A stretch of DNA of 63,959 nt, filler included, from Dimargaris cristalligena (Eukaryota): NCBI GenBank assembly GCA_003614675.1. It is 19 parts of 19 records of this genome, joined end to end, with 100 filler letters (N's around TTAATTAATTAA, not from the genome) between each part and the next. Parts side by side here need not be neighbours in the genome. Positions count along the whole stretch, not along the records: positions 17,052 to 20,351 come from ML003988.1; 18 more parts are not named here. One strand, given 5' to 3'. Under the pieces are notes generated by a model. That model was given only the letters and a program-made list of their open reading frames with translations. It searched no databases and was not told where the DNA came from. Below are positions 13,716 through 58,690 of this stretch, piece after piece. The translations under genes and the position numbers were made by a program. How positions within the stretch are numbered: position 1 is the stretch's first letter; each line of letters begins with the position of its first letter.

Positions 13716-15988
13716 ATGCCCGCTCTCAACATATGGTAAGTCCGACCGAAGCCCGATTCCCGCTTTGCGAAACCCTCAGGATTCCGTGACCTGCCCGCGT
13801 CCTAACATCGGCCTCCCCCGCCTCCGCATCCCGCGGGCTTAAACTACGCACCCCTCGCATGCACGGGCCTTTATAACTTGACCCTCCTATAGCCACTAAC
13901 GCCCATTTCACAGCCCGTGCCAATGGGCCACTCCCTTATTCCGCTACCCCAGTCTTGCGTCAGACTTTTTTTATCCCAACACCGGTGGGGTCGAAGCCCA
14001 TCTGTATAGCCTGTCCCAATGCCTCCTCCGGCGAGGACATAAAGTAAGTAACTAGAAGAATACCTTGGTCAAAAGTATAGAGTGCCTTCATATGGCCATT
14101 TCTATTACCATAGTCTCTGGGCCTTGGACCTCCCGAATCGCTACGCCACCTGCTAATCACCTGTTTATTTGGAAAAATAACCACCACCGCCCCCTCATTC
14201 CACCGGTGGATTAGGTCATCATTATTACCCACGCCTACGGGAAGCGCACCGGAGTTCGGTATCTATCGGACGGATTGAAGGTCTACTACATCCCGGGACT
14301 AGTCATCTACAACCAAGCTACACTGCCCACCGTGTTCGGCAACTTCCCCATTTTCCGCTACATTTTTATCCGCGAACAAATCCAGGTGATACACGGCCAC
14401 GGCTCCTTATCGCCCTTCTGCCACGAAGCCATCCTCCACGCCCGCACCATGGGACTCAAGGCCTGCTTTACGGACCACAGTTTATTCGGCTTTGCCGATA
14501 CGGGCAGTATCATCACCAACAAAATGCTCAAATTCACCCTATCCGATATTGACCACGTCATTTGCGTTTCGCACACGAGTAAAGAGAATACGGTACTGCG
14601 GGCCGCCTTAAACCCCCTCAACGTATCCGCGATTCCCAACGCTATTGTAGGATCGTTACTCAAACCCGACCCCACGGCCGCGGACCCCGAGTGGATCACC
14701 ATCGTCGTGGCCTGTCGGTTAGTCTACCGCAAGGGGATCGATTTATTGGTGGCCATTATCCCGCGCATCTGCCACCAGTACCCCCGCGTCAAATTTATCA
14801 TCGGGGGTGATGGGCCCCGCCGCATTGATTTGGAACAAATGCGCGAGAGCTACGTCCTACAGGACCGGGTCGAGCTCCTGGGGGCCGTCCAAGCCGCCGA
14901 CATCCACAAACTGCTGGTCCGGGGTAATATTTTCCTCAATACCAGTTTAACGGAAGCCTTCTGTATCGGGATCGTCGAAGCGGCCTGCTGTGGCCTGCTA
15001 GTGGTGACTACTAAAGTCGGCGGAGTGCCCGAAGTGCTTCCGGAACATATTATCAAATTTGCGGCTCCCGAAGAAGATGGTAGGTTATTTAGATCCCACC
15101 CACCCCCACCTCTCTCGCATTTTCTCTATATATCCCGTCAACTTATGGTAACACCGATTAGTTCAAGGCACTACTAACATCCCGTACTCTCCATTGGCTG
15201 TTTATTCTTTTCTTCATTTCATAGATCTGGTTCGAGCGGTTTCGTTGGCTATCGAGACAGTACACGTCCGCGACCAGCGCCCTGAATTGGATCCGTTCGT
15301 GCTGCACGAAACTGTCAAACGCATGTACAGTTGGATGGACGTGGCAGTCCGTACCGAACGTGTATACTACTCCATTATGAAAGTGGAGGCACCACCCCTC
15401 ATTGAGCGTCTGCGCAGGTAAAATATATTCCGGCACATCTATGGTACATCTTTTGCGCCAATGCCCCCTGTAGCGGAACATGCATTCCTGAATATAATGA
15501 AGGTGCGGAGCCTTTGGATCTAGAGAAATACAGACATCCTCTTGATTTACCCATTTTTATTGACGCCTTGTTTGATTCTAACTCGTATTATATAACGATG
15601 CCTGTGATTGGGCGGGGTAATATATATATTTGCCTTATTTCACGCCCAACTCTCTCCAGATACTATGGCTGCGGCCAGTGGGCGGGTAAACTATTCTGTA
15701 TATTAGCAGCCATTGATTTCTTACTCTATCTATTCCTTGAGTGGGCCTTTCCGCGCCAGAATATTGAAATTGCCCCCCGGTTCGACCATAAGCGATACGT
15801 CGAGGTAAGTAGCCCCAAATACCAGTTGGCACTCGGCAGTAATGAATGTAGTCATAAATATAGCAGTTTGCCCCTTTTGATGCCACCCTCATTTCAATAG
15901 TATACTATGCTAAGACTGACAGGTTTGTATTTGGGTTTATTTGTTTATCCCACAATAGGATAAACGAAAAGAGGCGGAAATGAAATAG
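13716..15988 (+). CDS. SPT14: Phosphatidylinositol N-acetylglucosaminyltransferase subunit A (PIG-A/GPI3)
   Basis: Exons 13716-13735, 13953-14043, 14215-15079, 15225-15417, 15660-15804 and 15959-15988 with GT-AG introns. Motifs [32 protein letters not shown] and [11 protein letters not shown]. Confidence 0.96.
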
Positions 15989-16201: not shown

Positions 16202-16951
16202 TTACCGAGTCACGCATAAGGCCACCCCTGCGACCACGAGAGACATTCCCAGCCAGGTTTCTAAAGTAGGAATATATGGAGCACATAAAGTATATAGATC
16301 GAGTTGGTTAGACCTGCCCAATTGCTTTAAAGTCAAATGGATATGCCGGGGGGTGAGATTGCTTTTCAGTGGTGGTGGTGAACTTACTCTTTGAGCCGAT
16401 ATCCTCGCCGAGAAGATAGCCGGCCAAGGCGGTGAAGACAAAAGTAAGCGAGTTGGTAATGGGCACCGCCAGAGAAAGGTCTGCACAAGGGTTGTGTATA
16501 GTGGGAAAAAATACAGATGGTTCAATTCCAGGGGCGGTATATTAGATATCAGCAGGGATGGCTTTGAAGGGCGCGGCGGAGAGCCGGATATCTCCCTTCT
16601 ATACCAGGCCAACTCGGCTAACAGGAAAATCCGGACATTGTGGATTGGAATAATACTATGTAAAATATGATTGGTGGTACACTTACCTGATTTCCCCAGG
16701 GTGTAATAATAGACCATGGAACCACTTAAGTTTAGGGCCAGCGGAAGCACATACTATATGGGGTAAGCAATTGTATCAGGGTAGAACAATGGAGTGGGTT
16801 AGAGAAATGGTCAGATCGCCAAGCACAATAAAAATGGGTTTTTTTGGGGGGGGGGTAAGCCTCACGTGGATTGAGGAGAGGGGAGGGGGAAATCGAGGCG
16901 ACAGCATTGTAATTAGCGATATCTTTACCTGCCACCGGGTCAAAAGGTACC
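16202..16951 (-). CDS. TMEM234-family membrane protein (5' truncated, intron-containing)
   Basis: Spliced peptide [49 protein letters not shown].../[16 protein letters not shown]. Confidence 0.85.
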
Positions 16952-17051: not shown

Positions 17052-17121
17052 CCTTTCCCTTTTATTATCTATCTTTTCAAATAAAGTTCAGTTTTCAAGG
17101 ATTTGAGTTCAGTTCTTTACA
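17052..17121 (-). repeat. LTR-like family D end (TGTAAAGAACTGAA...)
   Basis: The same terminus occurs at 23627-23742 and 26989-27125, each running into a contig end. Confidence 0.85.
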
Positions 17122-17395
17122 ATAGTACTCTTACCCGATATAGTTTGCATTTGATGCCCCATTGGTTACCTTGGGCTCATACAGGGCAAACTCGAAGCTG
17201 GCCATACTCAACACCTTATATAAATACTGCCCTCAAGCCTCCCTCTTTTTACTCACACATCTACCCTTCCTCTTCTCTTTCCCCAACCCCCAACTTAGGT
17301 TTTAATTCAATTTTTGTCCCCACCATACTTTTCACTATAGCCCTATTCTTCATTCCGCCCAGCCCATTAAATGACTACAACCCCTTAGTATAGCC

Positions 17396-19043
17396 ATGAA
17401 GTCCATCTGTTGCTCAGCTTTGCTGGTGGGTATGATTTTGGCCCACTACACCATGGCTTTTCCTTCCACTGACCCCACCACCCCCGAGCCCCCTTCTCAA
17501 GCTTCAACTAGATGGATACCTTGTTTAAAGTCCCTGTACAGCAGTAGATGGTATCCAACTTCTACTAACACCCCCGAACTGCTTCAAGACACCATGCCAG
17601 GCATATTCAAAGATACAGATGACAATACCCAATCGAAGAGGTTAGCCACAAATAATCCGGGAAATCTGCCCCAGGAAATTAAAGAACAAATAAACCAGCA
17701 CCTGAGTATTGTCGATTTAGCCCACGCTTCCCAAGCATCCAAAGGGTTCCAGGAATTAGCATTGGCTGACAAGAGATACTGAAAAAAAGTTGCAGTAAGT
17801 GAAATTTTCAGTACTATCTTTGCTTATTGGACATGTGACTAAGAATACATCTCCAAAAATCTGTTGACAAGACCAACATGGTCATTTCTAGGCAGGTCAT
17901 ATTATTGTTGCTATACCTTTAACTCCTTGTTAAGGTTTCCTCCCACCAATACTAAGTCACCTCTAACCCAGTCATTTTTTGTGAACATTGGACCTACTTG
18001 ATAGAGTTATATATATTTGCCTAATTTGCTAAAAGTGCTAATTTGGATGCACAGAGCAAGAAGCCAGGCTGCCATTATCAGCCAGGCCATGTGAGCTGAA
18101 CTAACCATCTCTGCATTCCATATCACATAACTAGACCTCAAAGTTCTTGGGATCTCACCCATAGGTGAAATAATCCCTGAATCCTATAGTCCAGAAGAGC
18201 GTGATGTGCTATTGAGCACCCCAGGATTTACAACCATGCTTACAGAACTATATTCCAACTGGTGTTATGTGCACCTTGGTCAGATGGATCAGGATCAGCT
18301 AACGTCTGCATTCCCATTCATGGAAGCCACCCTTTACAATGACATTGAGTGACTCTGGGCCACCACTTTCAAAATCCAATGACTGCAGGTTGATGATGAA
18401 AATATCACGGCCGTCGTTCCACAGCAATATACTGATTCCCATGTATAACCCCAGAAACCACTCCTTGAGTCGGTGTCTGAACTCCCAGCTTATACCCATT
18501 GTGGCCATTTTCATGATCATTGGTGCCTTGGCCGAGAAGGAAAAATTCGAATTACTCAGTGAGTATATTGTTAAGCTCCGAAAAATGAGTTCATGAAGAT
18601 TGGCATTGACAAACTTCACCAACCCACTGGCCTTAGAGTTGAATCTTAAGGGCGTCGCAAAACAGGCATTAAATTCTCTAAAGTGGGACGTCCAATGAGT
18701 CTACCAATGCACTATTATTTTTGGCTATAGTCAGGCAGCCCAGGTATTAGTACAATATCACCAAGAGGCTGTAGGGGTGCCAATAACAGAAAATATAGAA
18801 GAGCTTGGTCAGGAGTGGTGTTGTGATAACTACAGTGCCCCTGGTTATGTTTCTATTAAGTGCAGCACAGATACCAATGGTAATATGAAGACATCGGTCT
18901 CCTACCTTACCCTCCGCTCCGCCTTGCCCGTAGAGCCCAGTTTTCCTGAGTCAGCCTTTGAAGATGCAGCCGTAAGCAAAAAGCTGTTCGACCAGTGGCT
19001 CATGGACTCTCAATATAGCCAAGATGAAATCCTATTGACATGA
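17396..19043 (+). pseudogene. Signal peptide + F-box-like protein, decayed
   Basis: MKSICCSALLVGMILAHYTMA signal peptide and LPQEIKEQINQHLSIVDLAHASQASKGFQELA F-box pattern. TGA at 17780, GTAAGT donor at 17795, and a downstream exon with stops and a frameshift. TATATAAA lies upstream near 17217. Confidence 0.65.
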
Positions 19044-20533
19044 CAGAGAGTTACTTCTATCCCTATGGCAGGTGTGTGTACCACTGACACTGAAATGACA
19101 GCATCCTTGCTGGAGGATAGTTTGGTCATGGACCAGAGCAACTAGGAACCCAGACACTTAGAAGCCTCAGCCAGTGATGCATGATTTCCCTGTCTGTCAC
19201 CACCAATGACTCCGAATTACAAAGCCCAGTCCTTACCAACCAAGTATATCAAGAATGGTATCACCCAGTCATTGTCCATAGTTATCTCAAGGACACAAAC
19301 TTACCAGGGGTGAACCCTACATCCATCATTTATTTTCAGCTCACATGTTATAAAATCTCAACTAACTATATATATATGGTATTATATAGTAATTCTTTAG
19401 TTTACTTGTACTCCAATTGCTACTATATCACTTTGCTTAAATTTAAATTGCTATAAACCTACTAAATAAAATGCCCTTTTTATTTTCTATATTCATCAAG
19501 AGTACTTAAAATTGGACTATATCCAGGTGATTTTTTAGAGTGCCTGCACTCAGTTCATTCTAAAACATTTTATGCCAAAAAGTGCACCATCAGCCAGTGG
19601 TACTATATATTGACATTAGCCATCCATCACTGAAGAGTGGACCTAACTGAACCCACCATCTTGTTAACCCACTTGGTTGCCTTGTTTTGATCCGTTTTCT
19701 GTTTGTATTTAAGGTCAAGGAATTACCCTGAATAGTGCATTGTTTTCCCTGGTCTCTTACCTGACTTTTTTTAGAACAGCACTGTCAGATATCTAGGTGT
19801 GGTATTTGGTTTGTTGTATTATTTGGTCACAAGCATTATATGATAATTAAATATATCTACTTATTTGGCAGTTAAATCTATTTGTATACTATGAAGCTAG
19901 TATGTCATCCAGGATAGCACTGCTTAATTGAGTTTTCATGAAGGCCTAAGGGGACTTGTGATATTGTCTATTGGAAAACCAATGGTATGAATCTACTAAT
20001 TCTATGTAGTGAAGCACACTGGTTATTATTTTATATAATACAGTTAAAATCACACCCAGTGGAATTTAGAGGATTAATATACTTTAAATTAATCCCAAGA
20101 AATATCTAATATACTTGGTGTCACCCAGGTTAACCACTCTTAGTCCATCAAGAGTACTGAGGGTAGGCTTCTAATGGTAGGTGGGGCTTTAGACTTGGCC
20201 AAGCGGGCTACTAGCATCAGGGTGGGATCAGTACTAACCAATAAAGGATAAGTGCAGGCTAATGCAAGGGATGTACAGTGGGTGTGGTGAACTTACCACA
20301 TTTTTTACCTACTTTTATTTTTTATCTATTTTTCGCACTTATCGGAAGTATNNNNNNNNNNNNNNNNNNNNNNNNNNNNNNNNNNNNNNNNNNNNTTAAT
20401 TAATTAANNNNNNNNNNNNNNNNNNNNNNNNNNNNNNNNNNNNNNNNNNNNGTCCGATTTTACTATATCTTTTGACAATAAGGCATTTTCGCCTATTATT
20501 ATATTAGTCACTCTGCCATACCACAACAACTTA

Positions 20534-21577: not shown

Positions 21578-22279
21578 TTACAACGGCAGTAGAGAGGTGG
21601 CACTGCGCGTTAAGTTGGATGTGGCAAACCGCAGCGAATTGGTGCCTCCCGGGAAATAGGATACAAAATACCACACCAACGCCACAATCTGGACGATACT
21701 ACTCACGAGGGTCCCCAAATACGACTGACGACCCACGGAGAAGTACAGCGTCAAAACCATGGACCCGAAGTACGTTATCGTAAACGCCAGGCGGGACCCC
21801 GAAATCAGGTGGTAGAAATGGGCCTTGAGGCCGCGCAGGAAGGCGACCCCCACCATCAACAAGAGGCTGCCCAGGGTGAAAGCCGTGGCGAATTTCTGCG
21901 GGGCCAGGATGAGCATGGGGAGCGTAAAAAAAGCGAGGAGGAAACAAAAGACCCCGGTGATGGCGCAGAAAAAGAACGCGACGTAACGTTGCCAGAGGGT
22001 CATGGCAAACCACTCGCCGCTCGAATTCGAGTTCCCGAAGCCCTGGTCACCGGAATTACCGCTGCCCCCAATGAGACCGCCGATGCGATCGCGAGTACCC
22101 GACGCCCAGTCACCTACGGGTTCCGTAATGCGATCCAGCCGCCAACCCGACAGGAGGCCGGAGGACGCTGTGGGGGAGTCGTCGCTGTGAAAATTGCCAG
22201 AACCATACACGCGATTGGAGGATAGGGGTTCGGGGGCCGTTTGGGTTTTCAACGAGCGGAGGGCATCCGTCAAGGACAT
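21578..22279 (-). CDS. SFT2: Got1/Sft2-family vesicle transport protein
   Basis: Intronless 233-aa ORF from MSLTDALRS with four TM segments. Motifs PQKFATAFTLGSLL, YFGSMVLTLYFS and WYFVSYFPGG. Confidence 0.92.
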   Translation of the reverse strand: MSLTDALRSLKTQTAPEPLSSNRVYGSGNFHSDDSPTASSGLLSGWRLDRITEPVGDWASGTRDRIGGLIGGSGNSGDQGFGNSNSSGEWFAMTLWQRYVAFFFCAITGVFCFLLAFFTLPMLILAPQKFATAFTLGSLLLMVGVAFLRGLKAHFYHLISGSRLAFTITYFGSMVLTLYFSVGRQSYLGTLVSSIVQIVALVWYFVSYFPGGTNSLRFATSNLTRSATSLLPL

Positions 22280-24284
22280 GGTAGCAGATTCAACCGGTAT
22301 TGGGTATATAAAACTATATGACGGGGTGGGGGACGAGCGCGTGTGTGTACGAATACTGGGCTGGGGGCGGATGGGGAGGGGGGAAATCAAGGAAAGGAGA
22401 GTGGTGAAGATGAGAAAACGTGGAGTATAAAGGAGCGGTGGGATGCCGCCTCAGTCAAATGGAAAAGGCAGTCGATTCGAAATAAAAGTAAGCGAACTGG
22501 CGGATTATATGCTTAACGATGAATAGATGAAAGGAATCGACGGCCATCCACAGCGGAGTGTTATGTTGGTGGACTTTTCCAATAACATAGCTTAAGACTG
22601 TACCACGGTTTGCCAAGAATTAAACGCAGGTTGAACTGCAGTGGAGTGGTAAAGCAGGAGGCAGTTCCTCACTCACTTCCGCCCTTAGGTCTATTGTAGT
22701 TTTTTATCAAGTATGAACCTCCAATGCCCCGTGGCCACCATATTTATACTCAGCCCACACCATTTCTTATCCAGCCACGCTTATTTGAAGGCTCACAATG
22801 GTTCCATAGTCTATTCACTTGTTATCTCAGCATTACTGGTAAAGAATGGTAATTGTATGAGGCAACTTGTTATATATTATTTCATTTCTTGGAGCTCACA
22901 CAGAACAATTCAATAAATAGTAATATAGAAAAAGGGACCAGCTATTATTAATTCAATTCTCTTAGCTGGCTATGGTTTATCTCACCTTACTCCTACCTCT
23001 ACGGAAAGTGATAGTCAATAAATTGCCAATAGCCCCTTGTTTACTCTAACTCCTACACATCACCCATCCCCTAAATTATCTCTATGGTGCTTTGGATTCC
23101 TTAAGATAAATCTGAATTGCACTTCTATCATCCTTTGACTACAGACCACTAAAATGTTAGTGGAAATTGATTGGATTAGTTACTGTTTGAAACAAGCTAG
23201 GAATAGAAGAATAGGTGGGCCTATACCCCTCTCAGAAATGGCCAGCCCAAGAAACAGAACAAGCATTATTTACAAATATTAATGCTCAACAATTTACTTT
23301 AGAGCTAAGTTAATATAATTACCCTTGAATAGCCCAGTTTACCCAATGACTTAGAATATAGTAATTATAGTAGGGAAATGGGTAAAAACACACTCAAATA
23401 AGGGACAGTGGGAGTTGCTGAGGTGGTCATGCCTGTGGTAAAATTACTCAAGGCTACTAAAAAAATTTGCACATCATTGAGCAGCTATATGTCCCTCATT
23501 CTCAAATCCATGGTATCCCTACTGTTGGGATAAACTTGCAGTCACACTTTATCAACATTGAACCAGGTTCAAAAGACTATCAATAAATAAACATAAAACT
23601 ACTAGTAGTTACTGAGAATTACATACTGTAAAGAACTGAAATCAAATCCTTAAAAACTGAACTTTATTCAAAAAGATAGATAATAAGAAGGGAAAGGTGA
23701 TGATAGACTTGCTGTTCCAAGAGGTGGCAGCAAGGGGGAGTANNNNNNNNNNNNNNNNNNNNNNNNNNNNNNNNNNNNNNNNNNNNTTAATTAATTAANN
23801 NNNNNNNNNNNNNNNNNNNNNNNNNNNNNNNNNNNNNNNNNNCAGGTGGTCCTACACCAATTATGAAACGATCTTGCTTGGGAATCTGCCAAATGTAGCA
23901 CCAAGGCGGCGGAATACCATTATGGGATAATAGGGCAGCTCCCCTACCACCCTGATATCAGGGTAATATATTTAGGGAGTATAAGTAAAACAAAGTACAG
24001 GGTGGAAATAGAACTTGATATTAAATATAATATATTCAAGCTGAGTTGATATTGGGTGGATTGCACTTTTCCCTCACCTCTTGAATTGAAAAAGGGAATT
24101 TGAATCCCAATATTAGTGGTGGAGACCCCTACCCTGTGGAAAAAGCAACAGGTTACACAGCTGTGCAACTTTTGGGGTTCACCAACAGGATTGGCTCTCA
24201 TATATTTCTTTTCAGAGGCATACCACCTTTACCACTTCCGTTAAAATGAGTATTACATAGGAACATACATTTGTAGTGCCATCT

Positions 24285-24380: not shown

Positions 24381-25161
24381 TTTTCACACTGAAATTACTG
24401 CCTATACTGTGACATACACAAAAAAAAAAATCTTTATACTCATGGTTTGCATTAAAAAGTCCATTGTTCTTCCTTGCATTTAAAAGGCTGACCTATTTTT
24501 CAGTAGATTCCTTGTTATTCCATCTGGTTCTATTCTTGACCTTTTTTCTATGTCCCTTTCCTTGTATCCAGCAGCCCCTAAGGCCCACAGGATAGTTACA
24601 TAAGTAACCAGTGAATTCCCACTTGTTGGGAGGATAATTATTGCTCATTTAAATTTTGAAATCATTTTTGCTATTCCTTAAACTTGACCATGACTTTTAT
24701 TAATTACTAATTATTAACTCCCTTATTTTTAATATTTCTCAATAAGCTTTGATACTCCTCATTTATCCCCGTCCCCCATCTGATTTGCTAACCATATACT
24801 CCTCTGAAACCCCAACATGATGATACCCAACTCTGCCCCTGTCTCATCTAACTCCATGAACCTCCCATCTTCAACAACCAGGGAGCTGGCCACTGCAACT
24901 TTAGGCCATGCTGATAAGGAAGCCACTGCCTCCTTGTGAAACCCAAAAGCCACTGGCAACAGGCTGGACCTCCCAGGTAGTACACATTACATGGACCACT
25001 GTTAACTAAATGACCTAGTATTAGTTGACAGCCCCTATATTGTATCCCATAATATAAACCCATCTAACCAGATACCCAATAACCAACCTCATTCTTTCAG
25101 CTCTACACTCCCTTCCCCTCTCTTTATCCTCCTTCCTACCCCCCTACTTGACTAAATCACC

Positions 25162-26988
25162 ATAAAGCTCACCATTTTGATCTTTACTCTCACTATTACT
25201 GCTTTATGATTTTCATGTATGGTGGCCAGCCCCACAGTGTATAGCTTAAATATTGGGATGCATTCTTTCACCAATCTACCCATTGAGTTGCAGTGTATTA
25301 TTACCTAAAAGCTGGATGGTTATGTAAACTGGCAATTCTCTCAGGTAAACAAGCATTATCATGAACTGGTAGAAAAATCAGCCCATTTTATTGTAAGTAT
25401 TGAGTTAATGTGACCAATGACAGGTAGAACTCTAAGGCGGATTTTATTATTGTACAAATGATTATTATGGACTGTTGGTAGAGGTTTTTGTCTCATTATA
25501 TCACCTGTCCATTTAGACCATCTTGATACTAACTAAGGCAGTTAGTGGAAAGGCAGATAAGGTGGAACCTGGGAAATATGACTGCTTCCAAGATCCCAGT
25601 GCCCAATAACTATCAGTTAATAATATTATATGCACCTTGCCTCGATCCTGCAGATCAATACACCTTGACAGTCAGATAGATTGGTGTATTTGATTCAGCA
25701 GTATATCTACTCCTACATTGGAAACTTACCTGGCAACAAGCACAATAGGGACACAACCACCAATTATGACACTGAACAGGGGGCCCAGGATATTCATTCC
25801 AACTGGATGGTTCTCTTTAAGCATGAAACCATCATAAACCTTGCTGATATCACCAATTATCATCAAGGTTACAATCCTATAATTAGGATCAGGTATGATA
25901 TATCAGATATCCCTTTAATCAAGACTGGCTCATTGAGTAGTGTACTACTGGTAGACAACCTAGATGATAAGCAACTTTACACAGAGCTTCCTATTCTTCA
26001 ACTGGCTGATAGTCAAACTATCCCCAAATTTACCAAATACTTGTCCACTCTATTTGAGAGTGATTTGGAGAAAGTGGTAGGATGGGCATTTTTGCGAACC
26101 CTAGATCACAGGTTTACCAGGGCCAATACAGATGATCTTCCCTCACACATGTCCTTAGTCAAAGAATATTTCCTTGGCACACTTACCCTGGAACCCTTGG
26201 ATTTGACTACCTATCTCAAGTATCTTGACAACCCAACCCAAGTGACCTCAACTGACCACCTCAGTTTTGAGAGGTTCATCCCATCATTAAATGACAGTTG
26301 GAATTTATTTAATGACAATGAAAAGATCAAGATATTCCACAGCCAATTCACAATGGACTCCTTGAGGTCCTCTGATGCTGAGGAACACCTTGGCAACCTC
26401 ACCCTGAAAGCCCCATTCTATAATGGCCACATTTTGGAAACTACTCTTGCTCACATTACCTGGTGTCTACTCCAGAAAGTGACTGCAGCTCTTCCCAGTC
26501 ATCCATCCCAGTCTCCTTTTAACAAGGTCAAGGAATTCTTTAAGTATTCACTTGATGAGGTCTTTAAACTGGATACAATGGATTTATACTTTGACCATGC
26601 TATTGTTGCCCTTTTCACACTTGCTCTTACCACTCAATCATTCACAATGCTAGCTCAAGGTGGGGAGGATCTGTCCACTGAAGAGCATATTAACAACATA
26701 GCTGCATTCTTTGACCAATATCTGGAATGGGATCTGGGAGTAGTATCAGTGGATGAGGCATTGGATAACATTTATGCACATGACTACTTTTCTATTCTGA
26801 AGTGGTAACCCAACTATCTCTATTGTTTGGGTGTATATGGACCCAATAAAGCCCATGATTACCTACTCAGTCATTGGCCAATGTTAGATAGCATCAGTGA
26901 GTATGCCTCAACTAATCTGAACTTAAGATGGGTAACTCCTTCCTTGGAGCAAGAGGATAAGCCTGCTCTCATGAGAAGGTGTAGGGGT
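25162..26988 (+). pseudogene. Second signal peptide + F-box-like protein, decayed
   Basis: The frame from ATA at 25162 reads (M)KLTILIFTLTITAL*FSCMVASP...FTNLPIELQCIIT*KLDGYVNWQFSQVNKHYHELV, then GTAAGT at 25393. A long exon includes ORF 25681-26808. The 3' end is cut by family D at 26989. Confidence 0.65.
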
Positions 26989-30753: not shown

Positions 30754-32281
30754 TTAAAAACCGTGGTTAAATATGTTGGACCGTTTTTGGAATCGAATGT
30801 TTTTACTATCGATGGCCTCGGTCTGCGCCGCTATAGACCGTAAAGTCGAGAGGGATTTGGCAAGAGTGCTCAACCATACCATTTGGAGGGCTTGTTCGTG
30901 TCCGGCCAGGGCGATTGATTCGGTAGGGGAGGCTGGGGAATCACTCGAAGGTAACGAATGGCATAGGCTTTTGATACGCCATAGTAAGACGTGGTCGGGG
31001 GAGCGCTTGCCTGTGCGGGGCGAATCGGCGGGTGGTAATATATTCGGCGATAAAGAACGGAGGAAAGTGTAATGGCATCAAACCAAAAATTAGTACTCGC
31101 ATCGGTGGTGATATGTTATTTTCTAAATAACTATATAACCCCCCCCCCCGGTACTGTATGGGCGTTTCGAAAACTTACCGGCTCGAATGTCCACGAGGTA
31201 GGTTTGGATAATTGCTAAACGGGACTGTAACATTTGTACAGCACTGAGATGCGACTGGAGAAAGAGGGAAGTTGACAAGGGTTGCACCTCCCCCCCTAGG
31301 TCCCCCCCGCTGGCATCGTTAACCAACTGCTTGGTCACAATCCGCTCTTCCTCGTCCGTCACAATATTAAAGGCTGCCGGCACCCATTTGACCGCCGCTG
31401 CAACGTCCGTCGTGGCCGTGGATTCCGGGGTGGGGACTACCTCAAGCACTTGAATGGGCAGCTGTTGTTCCTGACCGGTCGCCATGGGACGGGGATCGAC
31501 TATCAGCAGATACGGGCACTCCGGGCCCTGGCTCAGTCGGGCGTGGAGACGGCGCTCGACATCGCCGGTCTGAACCCCAGTGCAGTACCAGCCGATCATC
31601 TCATATTGGGGAAACACCTCTTTCATCATACTCCCCTTTTCCGTCATGAATGCGGAGTCGAATTCCGGTTGGTTGGTGCTAGAACCCGGCAGGGTCTTCC
31701 ACTCGTAGGTACTGAAAATCTGGGTCTCGCGGTCGGAAAGAGTGCCGAGAAGGGCGCCGAATACTACTCAGTTGGATCCGAATAATGGGAATGTACAAAG
31801 TCATATGGGTTGGGGGTAGCCCCACTTTGATATAAGGCATTAGCCGATAGTGGCCAGGTTGTTTGGTCAGCGATGAGTGGTGGAGTATTAGATCGGTAGA
31901 TGTGGTTGTATTCGGTATTTGTAAAACCTACCTCGACTGTCTTTGTCACCAGACTGAACCGCGACCCGGGTATAATGATCATTGATGTTGATCAGCGCCA
32001 ATGGGTGTCTAGGGATTATAATATGCAACCAACAAAGTTGATAATAGGGTGAATAACCAGGCCGTTGGTCGTCGATATAGCAGGGGAAGTATAGGTTTTG
32101 ACTCTTGGGGCGGCTCTAAAGGGAAGCTGTAATACAGGTTGAAGTTGGTTAACGGCTCAGACGAGGGCAGTCTAGTCGAATAAGAAATTTTAACTTCGCT
32201 CAACTATACGGTCGCAAGAGGTTCGCGCACTTACATTGCCACGGCTGAGCCCGAGGCTCGTTCAGGCCCTGTGGTGGCCAT
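30754..32281 (-). CDS. CSN6: COP9 signalosome subunit 6 (MPN- domain)
   Basis: Four exons (32281-32235, 32008-about 31932, about 31763-31179, 31010-30754). Motifs IHPLALININDHYTR, VFGALLG, KEVFPQYEMIGWY, TDEEERI and AVQMLQSRL. Confidence 0.88.
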
Positions 32282-33880: not shown

Positions 33881-34104
33881 NNNNNNNNNNNNNNNNNNNN
33901 NNNNNNNNNNNNNNNNNNNNNNNNTTAATTAATTAANNNNNNNNNNNNNNNNNNNNNNNNNNNNNNNNNNNNNNNNNNNNAGGTAAACTAAGGGGTCAGA
34001 ATAAGCTAAGGTATTAACCGGTCCCCATGGGGGGCCCGGTTATATATATGCGGGGAACTACTCCAAGGGAGGTCCCGAGGGGAAACTACATAACTAAGAT
34101 AACA

Positions 34105-34461
34105 ATGGGGATTCCGCTTGGCACCGTTGTACAGTATCTGGCCCTTGAGCTTCCCCGTTTTCAGGCGACCAGCGAGGGCATTCAGTAGGGTTGACTTGCC
34201 CGCACCCGAGCTGCCCATGATGGCGACCATTTCTCCGGGGGCGACATTGCCCGAGACGTTGTTAAGGAGCGTACACCACTCAACAACTTTGCGGAATCCC
34301 TTGGTTGCGAGGGGAACCTGGTACTCGAGGTTGTTCCACACGAGCCCACCATGACCGGTGCTTGGTTTAACGGAAGCCGGGTCTTTGTCGTCGACTGAGA
34401 CGGATTGATAATCGAGCCCGGTGGTGGAACTGGCATGGGAGAAGTGGTGACTATCGGTCAT
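34105..34461 (-). pseudogene. ABCG transporter N-terminus interrupted by an LTR
   Basis: LVWNNLEY...LLNNVSGNVAPGEMVAIMGSSGAGKSTLLNALAGR (Walker A). Homology stops at 34105, where a family C repeat begins with TGTTA. Confidence 0.85.
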
Positions 34462-37400
34462 CTTTAAGAAAATAAATCGACTCGGATCGGAGCAGTCGGA
34501 GGGTGAGGTATGGATAAAAAAGACAGATAAGAATTATAATGTGATTAAAAGCGGGCGCATGTCTGCTGAATAATTTTTGATTTGAATGGCGAACCGTGGA
34601 TGCCCCCTACTTATATAATTTCTCAAAACCTAAGGGTTTGATTATTTTTGGTGAGCACCGTTGTTGTAGAACTTCTCCTTGTGACGTTTCACGTTGTATG
34701 TCTAACATACAATCAATTATTGACGTGTCCATATGTATCTCTTCTACCATTGTTCGACAGTCTGGGTCATTAATGCCTTGCATTCTTCAGGGGTATCCCA
34801 GCTTTACTACAGTACGTCATACTTGCATCTCAGTTTCAATAACCACACAACTATTTATAATAGAACGTCCTCGGCGGACGTGAAATAAGAACGATTATCA
34901 TCATCATCCCCAAAAACTCACACCATCATATTTACAATACCTTTATTTGTTTGCTTATTTTTATCGATCCCATTTACGCGCCTCGAGTAAACTTTCGTCT
35001 TAACACCAACATTGCCACTGAACAAAGTGAGGTTTCCTCTTAACTCTTTTATTGCTACACTCTTATTAGCACCATTTTTCGACCAATACAGTGCGACAAT
35101 CCCCATTGTTTGGGAATACCACACTCAATGTAGGCCAACAGTTCATACTGTAACCTAGTGCCGAGTGGGGCAGGGTAATGTGTAAAGAAATTAGTGCTGA
35201 GAGGAGCAGGCGCGAAGGCAAAATAACTACAGGAGTATTAGTAAAATAATAGTATTTTATTTAAAGACAGAATCCTTTTCTGCTGGGCGGGTGGTTAGTT
35301 TTATTCCTCTGGGATGAGGTGTAGTTCTTGTGTTGTCGAGGGAGGGTCGTCCAATTCCATTAGGGGGGTTGGTTGGACCCCCATGTACATTGGCGGATCA
35401 TCCTCCTGAAGAAGAGCATTATGTGGTCGGCTGTCCTCCTGATTATGAGGGTTGGAGTTTCCCCTTGGTTGCAATAAAGTTAGAAAGGGATTGAAACTCG
35501 CCTTCGCAAAGCAGTATTGAAAAATGATGATTTCTTCCCCACCCACGCCACCAGTCATAAATCAATTCGCCATTGTGTGAGTAGTCTTCCAGCAGCCTTA
35601 GCTTTTTCTAGTGTTAGAGTGGGAAGCATTTCAGGAGGCAATAAACGGACATGTCATAGTGCAACTGCCCGAAGAGGCCAATTACTTTAACAAATAAGTC
35701 ACCTGACCCCGCCGACGAAAAGCACCACCCGATGGGCAATGAGCAATTACAAGCCCTACCGGCCACACTAAAAGAGCCCGGGTATTAAATAGCAGACTAT
35801 ACACATACTCCCGGGCAAATTTAAGACTAATCCAAATAAACATTTATCTTTCTAAAAAACCCCCGCTCCCACATCACGAACCCCAACTCGGAATTCATGG
35901 TAATTCCTTGCCCCGGTCGGCCCGAGCGTAACAACAGGAGAGGGTGCTGATATGTATATGGCTTTTTAGGCAGGGAGGGTACGTGGTATAAAGATGGGGC
36001 TCGGGAGAACAGGGGTACGGAGGGCGTTAGGGTTTCCTACCACCAGGGATTTTAAGAATAAGGGGATAAATGATAAGGTACTAAATGATACTTCTAAAGA
36101 CAATCTGAAGAATACTAGGGTTATAATCGGCTGCTTTATTAAGGGTTTGGTAATTCCGTCGCTATTTATAATACAGCGGGAATAGCAAGGATAACTGCTA
36201 AGATGCAATATCGGTCATAGTAGCCAGAGAGTTGACGTAGATAATGCAAGGGTGATCTGTTATCGTGTAATGAGTCATTGGAATAGCAATGCAGCGGAGA
36301 TATTATCTGGTATAAACCACGTAAAAGTGCAAGTATAAATGGGCTGATACTCGAATAGTGTATATTTGAGGTATGATATAAATGATAAAGCACCTCATGT
36401 ATAATAGCGACATTAACGTTGAGCAAAAAAGTGTAAATACGGTTCAGGTGCTAAATTAAACCAGTGTAGTTCATCCCCTAATGCAACCCTTGGAGGAGGC
36501 CAGATGATCCCAAGTTGAGACGATCCCTTTTCTCGACCAATGAGAATATACAATCAAACTCTCTCACCATAGTGGCCCCTTCAGAACAAGCTGCAAATGA
36601 TAGTCACTTCAACCAGACACTGGAAATATAAATATAAAAAGAGTAGTAATCTATGTAGTCAGCAGATCTTCATGTTTCAATAAAGTACTTATTATAAGCA
36701 AAATTTTATTCTAAAAACCCTACTTAGTATCTTTAACTATTTGTCCCCACTTGATATCCCATTACACTAATGACACTCAGCCACAGGGAATTTTTAGTCT
36801 AACCACTGTCAATGGACATTCACTAATAATATATAAACCTTATTTACACTTTTATGCCTGACATTAATGTTGCTATTATGCACAGTGTGCTTTATTATCT
36901 ATATCAAGCCCTGTATCAGACTATCTAATCCTCCTTAATCCTAGAACCTTAGTGTTTATCCATATTAGGCCTTATAGCTGTGGTAAACTTAACATATTTT
37001 TACCTACTTTTATTTTTTATCTGTTTTTTACACATATTGGAAGTACACCCCTGACAAGTGAATGCACCCCTGCCCCTGACCAGACTGTACCCCTACATTC
37101 ACACGGCCCTTGGCCTGACTGCACCCCTATTTAAAGTACAGTTAAAAATAGCTTTCTCCCTTTCTTTTTATCCCTTCTATTATTTCACATTGAATTTATT
37201 GGTTACCCAAGTATTACCTATCCTTTGTGATGACTAATATTATTATCTGGGAACTCNNNNNNNNNNNNNNNNNNNNNNNNNNNNNNNNNNNNNNNNNNNN
37301 TTAATTAATTAANNNNNNNNNNNNNNNNNNNNNNNNNNNNNNNNNNNNNNNNNNNNCTGAAGATACTGATGATATAGTGGCAGTTAGGCCTGGTGCGGGA

Positions 37401-54101: not shown

Positions 54102-57100
54102 ACTAATGGTCAGACCAGCCTTGATGAGATCAGACAGTATACCAACTACATCATTTGCATGTTGGATTACTTTGTTGCGAATCCCATCAACCTCTACCTC
54201 TGCAGAATCAGTCTGTAGGTAGGTTTTGATTACACCATCGTCGACGAAGAGGGATAGTCAATGGGGCATATGCCTCCCTAGGATTTTGGTCATAACCTGC
54301 TGAAAGATACTGACACTGTTGGTCCATCCCATGGGTAGGCAGGTCATTCTCATGAGGCCAATCGGGGTATTGATTGCGAAGATGTCACAGTCTCGAGCGT
54401 CCACTGGGATTTGGTCATACCCCGAGTATAGGTCAAAGGTAGTGATGAGGCAACACCCTGAGATATCTTCTGCAATCTCATCGGCAACGGGGGGTATTCC
54501 AGCATTCCGAACTGTGACTGCGTTTACCGGTTGAAGGTCTTGAATGAAACGAAGCTTTTCACCATCCTTCTTTAACTGGGTGAACCACCGGCTGGCATAG
54601 GGACCTTCAGATGGTTCAATGATTCCTGATTCCAATCGGTCATTTAGGAGATTGACGACCTTATCATGGAGAGCACGCGGCACAGCAAAAGGGCGATAAT
54701 TCCAAGGGGTATGAGGAACTGTATGGACCCGAATAGGCTTTGTGATACTGGGATGAACAAGCCCAAGGTGTTCTGGACCAAAGGCAAAAGCCTGGTCTAC
54801 TTCCTTTAAACGATTCAGAAAGTATTGAGTTTCAGCTTCAGTTAATTCTCCATCACCAATGACTAGAGTTTTCTCTGTTGCTTCATTGATTCTGGGTGGG
54901 CCCATCATGTGAATATCAGCTGGGGGTGCCACCACAGATTCATCCTCATCTGACTGTTCTGTCTGGATTGGAACTGGTACAGGTCAGACCTTCTTTGCAA
55001 CTGGCTTATACTTGGTGAAGCCAACAAAGCATGGGTCCTCAACTTGGACAAGGTAGGAGCTTGGTAACCCATTACCAGTTCCCTGGGGGACAACAAATCT
55101 CTCTTGCTGGCCGCCGTGCTTGGCTAAGAAATGTTTAGTTCCATCAGTTGCACACTCAACTGTCCAGTCCACACTTGTCAGCCATGGCATGCCAAGGATG
55201 ACATATTGGCTATCGCCCTCAACAACCAAGAAGTTAGTTGGGACAGATATATTCCCAGTTTTCACCAGGGTGTCCTCCAACACATGGGCTGTGCTAACCA
55301 GGTTCCCTCCCAAACCATAGACTTGTGTTATCTCAGTACTAGGTTTAAATAGGTCACTAGGTAAGTGTTTAATGATTTGGTGGGGGACAATATTGACCTC
55401 TGATCCAGGGTCAAGTAGTGCCACCGTCGCCTTGCCGCCTATCTCCACAGGGATTACTACAGTTGATTGGTGCAGTAACCCTGGTTTTGCTGTCATTGTA
55501 ACCACCGATCAGACACAATCCTCGATTTCGCTATCACCGGAGTCATCTTCGGATGACGTCGCCACATGTACATCTGCCACTGTCACTTCGGGTGCCTTGT
55601 ATTGCCGTCGTTTGGCCAGGTAAGTCCGTACTACCTTTCGAGCTCGTGGAGCAACAGCTAGATACTCCATGGTGGAAATGCCAAGTTTACCGTCGCGCAA
55701 ATGGCTTTTTACCACATCATCAGTGTCCATCTGGTCAATGGGTGCGGCCAGACGGAACTTTGCCTTTCTCCCCTTTTTCGGGGGTACTTCGTCATCAATG
55801 GATTGGTCCATTGGAGTCACCGTAATAGCCGACCTTGTTAGCCTAGAGGCTGGCTCCTGGGGCTCTTTACGTCGCCCATCTGGTGTGGTGTTAAACACCT
55901 CGGTGGTCTCGCCTTGGTTATTGGACTTTCAGGCTCGTTTAGCTACCCCCGCGGGCATGACAACAGGGTTAGTGGATCCAGTTATCACCATTGGACCATC
56001 CAAGATGCGTGAACAAGTTACCGCAATACTGGTAGGGTGAGATACTCGCTCATTAACAGCAGCCTTCATTCCGCCACTGCCAAAACGCTGGGGTACTCGG
56101 GAACCATCAGGGAATACAATAAGTCCCTTCTCAATGTAGACAACTTTAGCTTGAAGATCTTTATAAAAGGAGTCGCAGTCATTATGAAAATGGCCAATTT
56201 CATTGCAGTATATACAATGAAGTGGGCCCTTATCACGCCTTTCCTTGCGCTCCGATGACCCGACCTTGATGCCGCGCAGTATCCCAAGAATTTCGTCTAA
56301 GTCCTGACGATCAATTGGGACCATGTTACTAGCTGGGGCCGTCCCAACCTGATTAACCAATGTTTTCTTCGATTTCGTGCTCCTTTTCATGGGGTAACCG
56401 TCATCCGCAGTTTCGCCATCTGAACTTGACGCCTCATCAGAACTTGTGGTAGTCTGATTTGCCTGATTCGTCGATCGCAGCTTCTCATGATAAGCCACTT
56501 TGTTCGCCGTGTCAATGTACTGGCTGAAAGTTGGATCACGCACCGTCATTTGATCCCACGCTCGCGTCGCCACCTGAGCAGGCAGGGCACATTCTAACAA
56601 CCAAATTTTTTCATTATCAGACATGTTACTCACCTTCATCGCCATTCGTTCGAACTCCTGGAGAAAGCCCAGGATCTCTGGTCCAACTGGTTTCTTCTTT
56701 GACAACTTTAAGAGGGCACTTCGGCGTCGGGATCCTCCTTTGAGGCGATATCGCTCGCCACGATCCAAGAGAAAGGCGCGGACGTCAGCCCAATCGTCGT
56801 CATAATCAAACAAATCACCAAATTTTTTCGCCAGTTTTTTCGGGAGGTAGTTCTTCACCTGCCGAATTTGGCGTATATCCGACATGTTCATCGCCTTCGC
56901 GTAGCATTCGAACTCTTCAATGAACCCAGTGGTGTCCTCTTCAGTGTACACTGACGGCTCCGTTAATCCAACGTTGATGAACGTCCTCTCATCCGGAGTA
57001 CTCGCGTGATTATCCCTATATGAGGCACCCCTTGTACTACCCGGGGTGTCCGGCCTATTGCCAGCGGCCTTCGGAATTTGCGTAGAGGCAACGGCCTCTT

Positions 57101-57200
57101 TATCAACCCGGCCAGAAGTCGCAGCGGCCAGCTCCCTGGTGGTAGAAGACGGGAGGTTCGCGGAGTTGGAGGAGACAGGGGCGGAGTTGGGCGTCGTCAT
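54102..57200 (-). mobile_element. Ty3/Gypsy LTR retrotransposon gag-protease-RT (inactivated, 3' truncated)
   Basis: Gag with zinc knuckle CIYCNEIGHFHNDC, protease ALLDPGSEVN, and RT motifs LRFIQDLQPVN, FDLYSGYDQI, LPMGWTNS and LFVDD. The four ORF pieces share one frame, separated by TGA codons. Confidence 0.95.
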
Positions 57201-58690
57201 GGCGGGATAACGGAGGGATGGGTAATCAATGGAACAAAACGGAGAACGGGGGATATAAACGAGGTATAAGGTTTATTGGGATATAAAAAACGGTGGTGTC
57301 CGTTAATAGTAAATCAATAGTCGNNNNNNNNNNNNNNNNNNNNNNNNNNNNNNNNNNNNNNNNNNNNTTAATTAATTAANNNNNNNNNNNNNNNNNNNNN
57401 NNNNNNNNNNNNNNNNNNNNNNNGGGGCGTACTTCCGATAAGTGCGAAAAATAGATAAAAAATAAAAGTAGGTAAAAAATGTGGTAAGTTCACCACACTG
57501 AGTATAGGACAGGCCAATCACAGAGATGGAATCAGTGCGATGGGGGAAATGAATTTCCAACAAGTACCACACCCCCATCCTAACACTAGTAGCCTGCTTG
57601 GCCGAGCCTAAGCCCCACCTACTGTTAGAAGCCTATCCTTGGGACTCTTGATGGACTAAGAATGGTTAACCCAGGTGATAGTGACGTTAATAATAATAAA
57701 TCAATAGAAAAAAGGTCATAGTCATGTTCAAGGAATAAGAAAACAAGTTCAAATTAAACTAGTGGTAATTTGTCTTTTTTCTCAAAATGAGCGGGAATTC
57801 ACTGGTTACTTATGTAACAATTTTGTGAGCCTTAGAGGCCACTGGGTGCAAAGAAAAGGACGTGGAAAATACTCAGCAAATGTAATAAGATGGAAGGGAA
57901 AGGAATGTGCCAAGAAATAGGTCAGATTTTTTTATGCAAACTGCAAGAGTAAAAAATAAATAATATTTTTAGTATTCTTAGTGTATTTGTTTTTAAAAAA
58001 CTCATTATGTTAATAGGGGGGAAAGAATTTTTTTTCCATAGTGAGACAGTGTCCCCCCTTTTAGAGGGGACCCCGCCTTTATTACCCAATGATAATAGTA
58101 CAATATAAGGGTGGTCGGCCTTGCAGACTGCCCTCTTTCCCTTATCTTTTCTTTTCTTTTGTTGGGGTTCTCCCACCCTCAACTCTTACCCCATGCCTGT
58201 ACTTGCTCTTTGCTGTATGTGGGTTCTCTTTTCTCTTTTCCCCCTTTTTATACTGTTTTCTCTTTTAGCCATATCTCTGTGACCAGTTTACTGGTCCCCC
58301 TCTATTATGTATTGAAATTGGTTCAATAAGTTATTGTGCAGGCAATAAAAATATTACTTTCCCTAAAGTAGAAAGGAAAAATTTCCTTGTGAAAATTTAT
58401 TTCTCTATCTTTCTCCTTCTTTTATTCCTTTGTGAATAAAATTTAGGTAGTGGGCATTTTATTATCAGGTCTCTATACTAACTGAATACTTATCTCGTCC
58501 CCCTTTAGGGTCCTTCAGACTTCCTATACTTTGATTTAGTGTCTATAGTTCTACCCCATTAAAAACTCTCTTACAATTCACCCTACCTCTTTTGGCTTTC
58601 CATTAATATTTTGTCTCAGTTCTTCAAAGGGTGAGTTAACCCTGGGGGATTCTCCTTAAGGAACAGATCAACAAGCATCAAGGATCAGTA

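Follow-up and report, generated by a model that had tools for sequence, protein, structure and literature searches.

A family of candidate secreted F-box proteins in the mycoparasite Dimargaris cristalligena, recognized from a decayed copy

What use could an F-box be to a protein that bears an export signal? The question is raised by a locus of the fungus Dimargaris cristalligena in which an F-box-like motif follows a signal-peptide-like N-terminus. An F-box is not known to have any partner extracellularly or in the lumen of the secretory pathway, and this is the main argument for delivery of such proteins into a host. The original prediction for this locus was that a secreted F-box protein makes most sense if delivered into another cell, for example by a haustorial parasite. 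The organism suits that guess: Dimargaritales are haustorial mycoparasites, described in the available part of PMC9866270 as attacking Mucoromycota and Ascomycota via an appressorium and a biotrophic haustorium. Delivery itself is supported as a prediction for a whole gene family, but not for the copy at hand, which is dead; the main finding is the family rather than this copy.

The window, by which we mean the whole stretch of DNA analysed (63,959 nucleotides), consists of unrelated contigs, each of about 3.3 kb, joined by N-spacers at regular intervals, and the locus lies on one of them (window positions 17052–20351). Since the contigs are mutually unrelated, genes outside these limits are not neighbours of the locus, and arguments from its neighbourhood were dropped. 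The genome scanned was an assembly of 30.65 Mb in 2220 contigs. Signal peptides were called with a simple heuristic, which is crude: it also accepts 17 of the window's 79 long open frames.

The features of the window copy are collected in the table below. Its first exon opens a frame of 128 codons (17396–17782, closing TGA included), whose N-terminus has a lysine and a brief hydrophobic stretch, with a small-x-small site following residue 21, and passes the heuristic; the cleavable-looking signal peptide of the original prediction is thus borne out to that extent. The F-box-like motif is likewise present in frame, with a PF12937 match above its cut-off that spans residues 90–124 (the motif as quoted earlier begins at codon 91), while PF00646 gives E 0.0016 and 18.7 bits, under its cut-off of 20.5. 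The GTAAGT donor downstream of the motif was also correctly seen, and leads across an intron of 210 bases into a decayed second exon, which retains matches of 46.7 and 69.7 bits to the family profile. The acceptor is predicted from the closest paralogue, whose junction follows public gene models.

Features of the window copy, in window positions, with the evidence on which each assignment rests
Feature	Position	Strand	Basis
TATA-like box	17217..17224	+	read from the sequence; function putative
Signal-peptide-like N-terminus, codons 1–21	17396..17458	+	sequence and heuristic; 81% DNA identity to the paralogue
Polar linker	17459..17662	+	low confidence in the model of an intact relative (P0001 residues 21–92, pLDDT <50)
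F-box-like motif	17663..17767	+	PF12937, E 1.3e-5, 25.3 bits, cut-off 24.3
Premature TGA, exon 1	17780..17782	+	sequence; alignment to the paralogue
Phase-0 intron, GTAAGT donor to AG acceptor	17795..18004	+	donor at the family-wide position; acceptor placed by comparison with the paralogue
Decayed exon 2, helical domain of no known family	18005..~19145	+	tblastn with P0001, 41–43% identity; lesion map; family profile

This closest paralogue, C1130, has both exons open and is 71% identical to the window copy over 1.9 kb; it is 96–97% identical to the D. cristalligena protein P0001. Over window positions 17126–19060, identity amounts to 86% in the 5′ flank with its TATA-like box, 76% in the intron, 74% in the F-box, 72% in the linker and 65% in exon 2, the flank and the intron being more conserved in this pair than the linker, the F-box and exon 2. 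At the end of exon 1 of C1130 the family donor site is altered, and public gene models splice 12 bases further on at GTCAGT, a weaker donor.

From its sequence, the window copy is almost certainly a pseudogene. The TGA just past the motif, which the original prediction had reported, is real, and its suspected origin from CGA fits the CpG-containing sense codon that the paralogue has there. As the account of the damage, though, a single TGA is ruled out: we count at least seven stops at codons homologous to those of the intact paralogue, in addition to a frame change near 18420. Those in exon 2 lie at 18092, 18128, 18350, 18380, 18586 (alignment-dependent, with local gaps) and 19041, and a protein search with P0001 meets eight stops inside three matches. 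The observed/expected CpG ratio is 0.29 in the window copy versus 0.91 in the closest paralogue, and is the second lowest among 49 family loci, the two lowest of which are both broken. In exon 2, transitions have hit 40 of 121 positions that are CpG in the paralogue versus 80 of 389 other C/G positions. Such CpG-biased decay would fit a methylation-driven process; across the 49 loci, the CpG ratio shows no correlation with open-frame length (rho 0.12, p 0.43). Given the many lesions and the loss of CpG, we reject an assembly error as the source of the stops. The public gene model P0012 is stitched together from open pieces of exon 2 of the window copy and leaves exon 1 out. By itself, the window copy is a case of ordinary decay.

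The genome holds many relatives. Scans with PF12937 (48 rows) and PF00646 (61 rows) merged into 73 F-box loci, all of which were examined. By the heuristic, 44 of these have a signal-peptide-like start (41 open, three with a stop in the linker), which provides the genome-wide count of signal peptide plus F-box genes that the original prediction had suggested as a check; intact paralogues keep this start. A phase-0 donor at F-box codon 42–46 is present in 37 of the 44, versus five of the 29 other loci (Fisher p 2e-8), a figure that reflects one inherited architecture rather than independent events, since paralogues share ancestry. By eye, the five donor-bearing loci without a signal start look like damaged or edge-cut members. 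The housekeeping F-box proteins of the same genome share the F-box with the family and give the top-scoring Pfam matches, but the strongest long-frame loci have neither the signal-like start nor the phase-0 donor behind the F-box, and among the long-frame housekeeping-type loci none passes the heuristic except one family-like locus (C295).

Downstream of the F-box, a frame of at least 240 residues is open in 42 of 50 family-type loci. These exon-2 frames fall largely into one cluster (28 of 42 at E 1e-5, 37 of 42 at E 1e-2) although members are only 10–34% identical to C1130 in this exon, so that we regard the family as mostly one old, highly diverged lineage. With P0001 and three exon-2 frames as queries, 69 loci were added, bringing the candidates to at least 119, a lower bound from the union of single-query searches that was inspected in part. 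As a non-circular test we took 40 of the 57 further loci that exon-2 queries had brought up, favouring long, high-ranking matches. Upstream of exon 2, 26 of the 40 score at least 12 bits on the family F-box profile and 14 stay below that mark, versus none of the 40 on the opposite strand (best 3.2 bits); all 26 have a signal-like start by the heuristic, and 21 have the donor. As predicted from these loci, an intact member comprises a signal peptide, a short linker and an F-box in exon 1, followed by a mostly helical domain of 300–450 residues in exon 2.

We think it probable that intact members are secreted F-box effectors that act on the host SCF via the haustorium, with exon 2 picking the substrates. 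They would leave the parasite at the haustorium by way of the secretory pathway, their signal peptides presumably being cleaved, and would then enter the host fungus, where the F-box is predicted to dock on host Skp1–Cullin1 and the variable exon-2 domain would select host proteins for ubiquitination. Such export-tagged adaptor proteins may be tools for hijacking the host's protein destruction. Of the observations that the original prediction named as counting against itself, none was made: an F-box HMM match exists, intact paralogues retain the signal-like start, and the F-box of one of them is modelled on Skp1.

The F-boxes on which this reading depends are degenerate, and many members fall under the profile cut-off. 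When 32 stop-free segments from the exon-2-chosen loci were compared with Pfam, 17 matched an F-box family at E ≤0.1, and every match stayed below the curated cut-off; the F-box of P0001, at 23.6 bits, falls just short of it. The best-kept residues are those of the LPxE core, whose Pro and Glu are retained in 48 of 50 aligned members; in the Skp2 complex these two residues also touch Cullin1. A profile of 29 family F-boxes, from members chosen by Pfam F-box, has F-box proteins as its best matches among solved chains (FBXL3, E 1.9e-7), and Legionella AnkB (5k35) is also matched at E 2.7e-5. In five paralogue pairs, dN/dS of the F-box ranged from 0.31 to 1.12, a noisy estimate from only 45–47 codons.

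Complex modelling with Skp1, another check named in the original prediction, was done with the 47-residue F-box of C1130 and Skp1 P0056 from Gamsiella (Mucoromycota), a stand-in that is not from a known host. The pair scored 0.73 in three runs, versus 0.02 for the best of three controls; the mark set for this score is reached by 51 of 78 solved pairs and 2 of 108 mismatched pairs. At least 91% of the contacts were common to the runs, the partner pLDDT was at least 83, alignments were not used, and the F-box was placed at the end of Skp1 that binds F-boxes. Because the F-box–Skp1 complex is among the solved textbook cases, the model may have reproduced a known answer, and its score speaks for likeness, not for binding. 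In a full-length model, the F-box region has a pLDDT of 40–50.

For exon 2, an AlphaFold2 model built with 34 sequences (pLDDT 85, pTM 0.86) shows a compact, irregular domain, largely helical and free of repeats, with a short hairpin at its C-terminus, and W, P, L, G and A positions are conserved. None of 41 exon-2 frames matches any Pfam family at E 0.01, LRR included, nor any catalytic motif or enzyme family. Foldseek returned no row at E 0.001 for this model (PDB, BFVD), and a fold search gave a best Z of 5.9 (rmsd 13.1, 184 aligned); these values establish neither novelty of the fold nor its difference from known ones, such as the substrate-receptor folds WD40, LRR, ankyrin and ARM/HEAT. 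The full-length model (pLDDT 63) likewise gave no Foldseek row at E 0.001, with a best Z of 5.4. The exon-2 profile reached E 0.077 at best against PDB sequences; in the ESM Atlas, residues 138–480 of P0001 had no usable match and another member had matches only below 0.9. In seven of seven intact paralogue pairs, dN/dS of exon 2 was 0.21–0.50, so that purifying selection acts on intact members. With all of these values below 1, we reject positive selection on this exon, although between the window copy and C1130 it is less conserved than the intron and the 5′ flank.

That exon 2 folds alone into so compact and conserved a domain, and that most members score weakly on Pfam F-box, would suit secreted effectors whose F-box-derived segment no longer forms an active ligase and serves as a decoy for host Skp1 or as a header for entry or folding, a role of the kind attributed to the N-terminal module of Crinkler effectors, exon 2 having its own activity. 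We consider this rather unlikely, given that LPxE is the part of the segment kept best, that an intact F-box is modelled on the appropriate end of Skp1, and that exon 2 matched no catalytic motif or enzyme family in the Pfam comparison.

The genome also contains two Skp1 genes, on C77 and C314, in neither of which a signal peptide was seen; the D. cristalligena Skp1 P0016 is matched at 100% over the exon queried. The C77 copy and its orthologues in Dispira and D. xerosporica are divergent, with 55–60% identity to P0056 versus 64–79% for other fungal Skp1. Together with F-box expansions in non-parasitic fungi such as Tuber, reported in the accessible text of PMC8146833, this would fit family members acting inside the parasite, their N-terminus being an uncleaved anchor or skipped and their F-box serving the parasite's own SCF, perhaps with the divergent second Skp1. 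We judge this improbable: the N-termini, with a maximal 19-residue hydropathy of only 1.45–1.81, a short hydrophobic core and small-x-small sites, look cleavable, and housekeeping-type F-box loci, save the family-like one, fail the heuristic. Past the N-terminus, none of five full-length members has a 19-residue window above 1.5; three of 42 exon-2 frames have one of at least 1.8, and none of the 42 ends in an ER-retention or CaaX signal.

Least probable of all is action outside the cell, on the wall of the host or at the contact zone, in which case the resemblance to an F-box would be a relic or coincidental: there is no evidence of translocation, and each protein has one to four N-glycosylation sequons, but the F-box core, for which no partner outside cells is known, stays at a fixed place across members that are only 10–30% identical in exon 2, and cysteines are few (1–5 in each of the five members). 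In the linkers, no common host-entry motif is evident by eye.

Secreted effectors acting on host SCF, the reading that we prefer, have a close parallel in the Hessian fly, whose SSGP-71 family has 426 members, which have a signal peptide, an F-box and about 13 LRRs and interact with Skp1-like proteins of the host, as given in the parts available of PMC10317074 and PMC4617103. Both are large families of a eukaryotic parasite with a signal peptide (here by heuristic) and an N-terminal F-box. The differences are that SSGP-71 is salivary, from an insect, and directed at wheat, whereas parasite and host are both fungi in the case of Dimargaris; that its LRRs contrast with a C-terminal domain without LRR or Pfam match; and that for the Dimargaris family Skp1 binding is a modelled one. 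The Dimargaris proteins would work like SSGP-71 but, having no LRRs, do not belong to that family. Bacterial F-box effectors that recruit host SCF, among them Ralstonia GALA/RipG, Agrobacterium VirF and Legionella AnkB (PMC4312480 and PMC4617103, as far as available), form small families with LRR or ankyrin domains and are delivered by type III/IV systems, in contrast to the ER-type signal peptide seen here. Nematocida displodere NemLGF2 (235 members, 113 with RING, about 467 residues, signal peptide, species-specific; PMC4928854, available sections) similarly combines an expanded family, a signal peptide and a ubiquitin-ligase module, and its function is likewise putative; its RING is C-terminal and its host an animal, whereas the Dimargaris F-box is N-terminal.

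In the literature searched, mostly without subscription papers and supplements, we found no secreted F-box family in a fungus and no paper joining Dimargaris with F-box. The Kickxellomycotina genome paper (PMC9866270) discusses proteases and secondary metabolites, and F-boxes are absent from its main text, as far as that is available. In UniRef, some members already carry the label 'F-box domain-containing protein'. An exhaustive search with P0001, covering one subfamily, found 12 proteins, of which 11 bear the label D. cristalligena and the remaining one Syncephalis, and a word-index search returned only P0001 itself among 8000 candidates. P0002, a public protein assigned to Syncephalis pseudoplumigaleata, shares 99% identity with exon 1 of P0001, which is probably due to contamination of the Syncephalis assembly.

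This family gives a direct handle on the means by which haustorial mycoparasites control fungal hosts. It carries export signals although the one partner known for it resides in the cytosol or nucleus, and so predicts that proteins cross the haustorium into the host. It names Skp1 as a first host partner, and the targets of its dozens of variable domains would reveal which host functions a parasitic fungus has to shut down. Judging by sequences and models, its members are good candidates for effectors that one fungus deploys inside the cells of others. We lean, if only slightly, toward the fuller picture: more than 100 secreted F-box proteins would carry a substrate-binding fold not yet described, their haustorial delivery would reprogram host SCF, they would have arisen independently of the F-box effectors of the Hessian fly and of bacteria, and through them mycoparasites would translocate proteins like biotrophic plant parasites.

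Further observations concern the rest of the window. Positions 20115–20283 hold an interspersed repeat of about 160 bases, copies of which, 85–92% identical, occur on many contigs (best 40 of 1259 candidates scored) and often close to contig ends. By Pfam scan, the other contigs carry ordinary genes at 14215–15177, 16202–16753, 21578–22450, 31123–31767, 34006–34533 and 54258–57272: PIG-A, TMEM234, Got1/Sft2, JAB/MPN, an ABC transporter and an LTR-retrotransposon fragment (protease, RT). Yet another contig holds, at 25160–26808 (+ strand), a second gene that resembles the family and has decayed. Its exon 1 has stops, an F-box-like segment at 25261–25374 (17.2 bits on the family profile) and a GTAAGT donor at 25393, and its CpG ratio is 0.04; a frame of 379 codons (25669–26808) is still open and weakly resembles the family member C1236 (E 1e-6).
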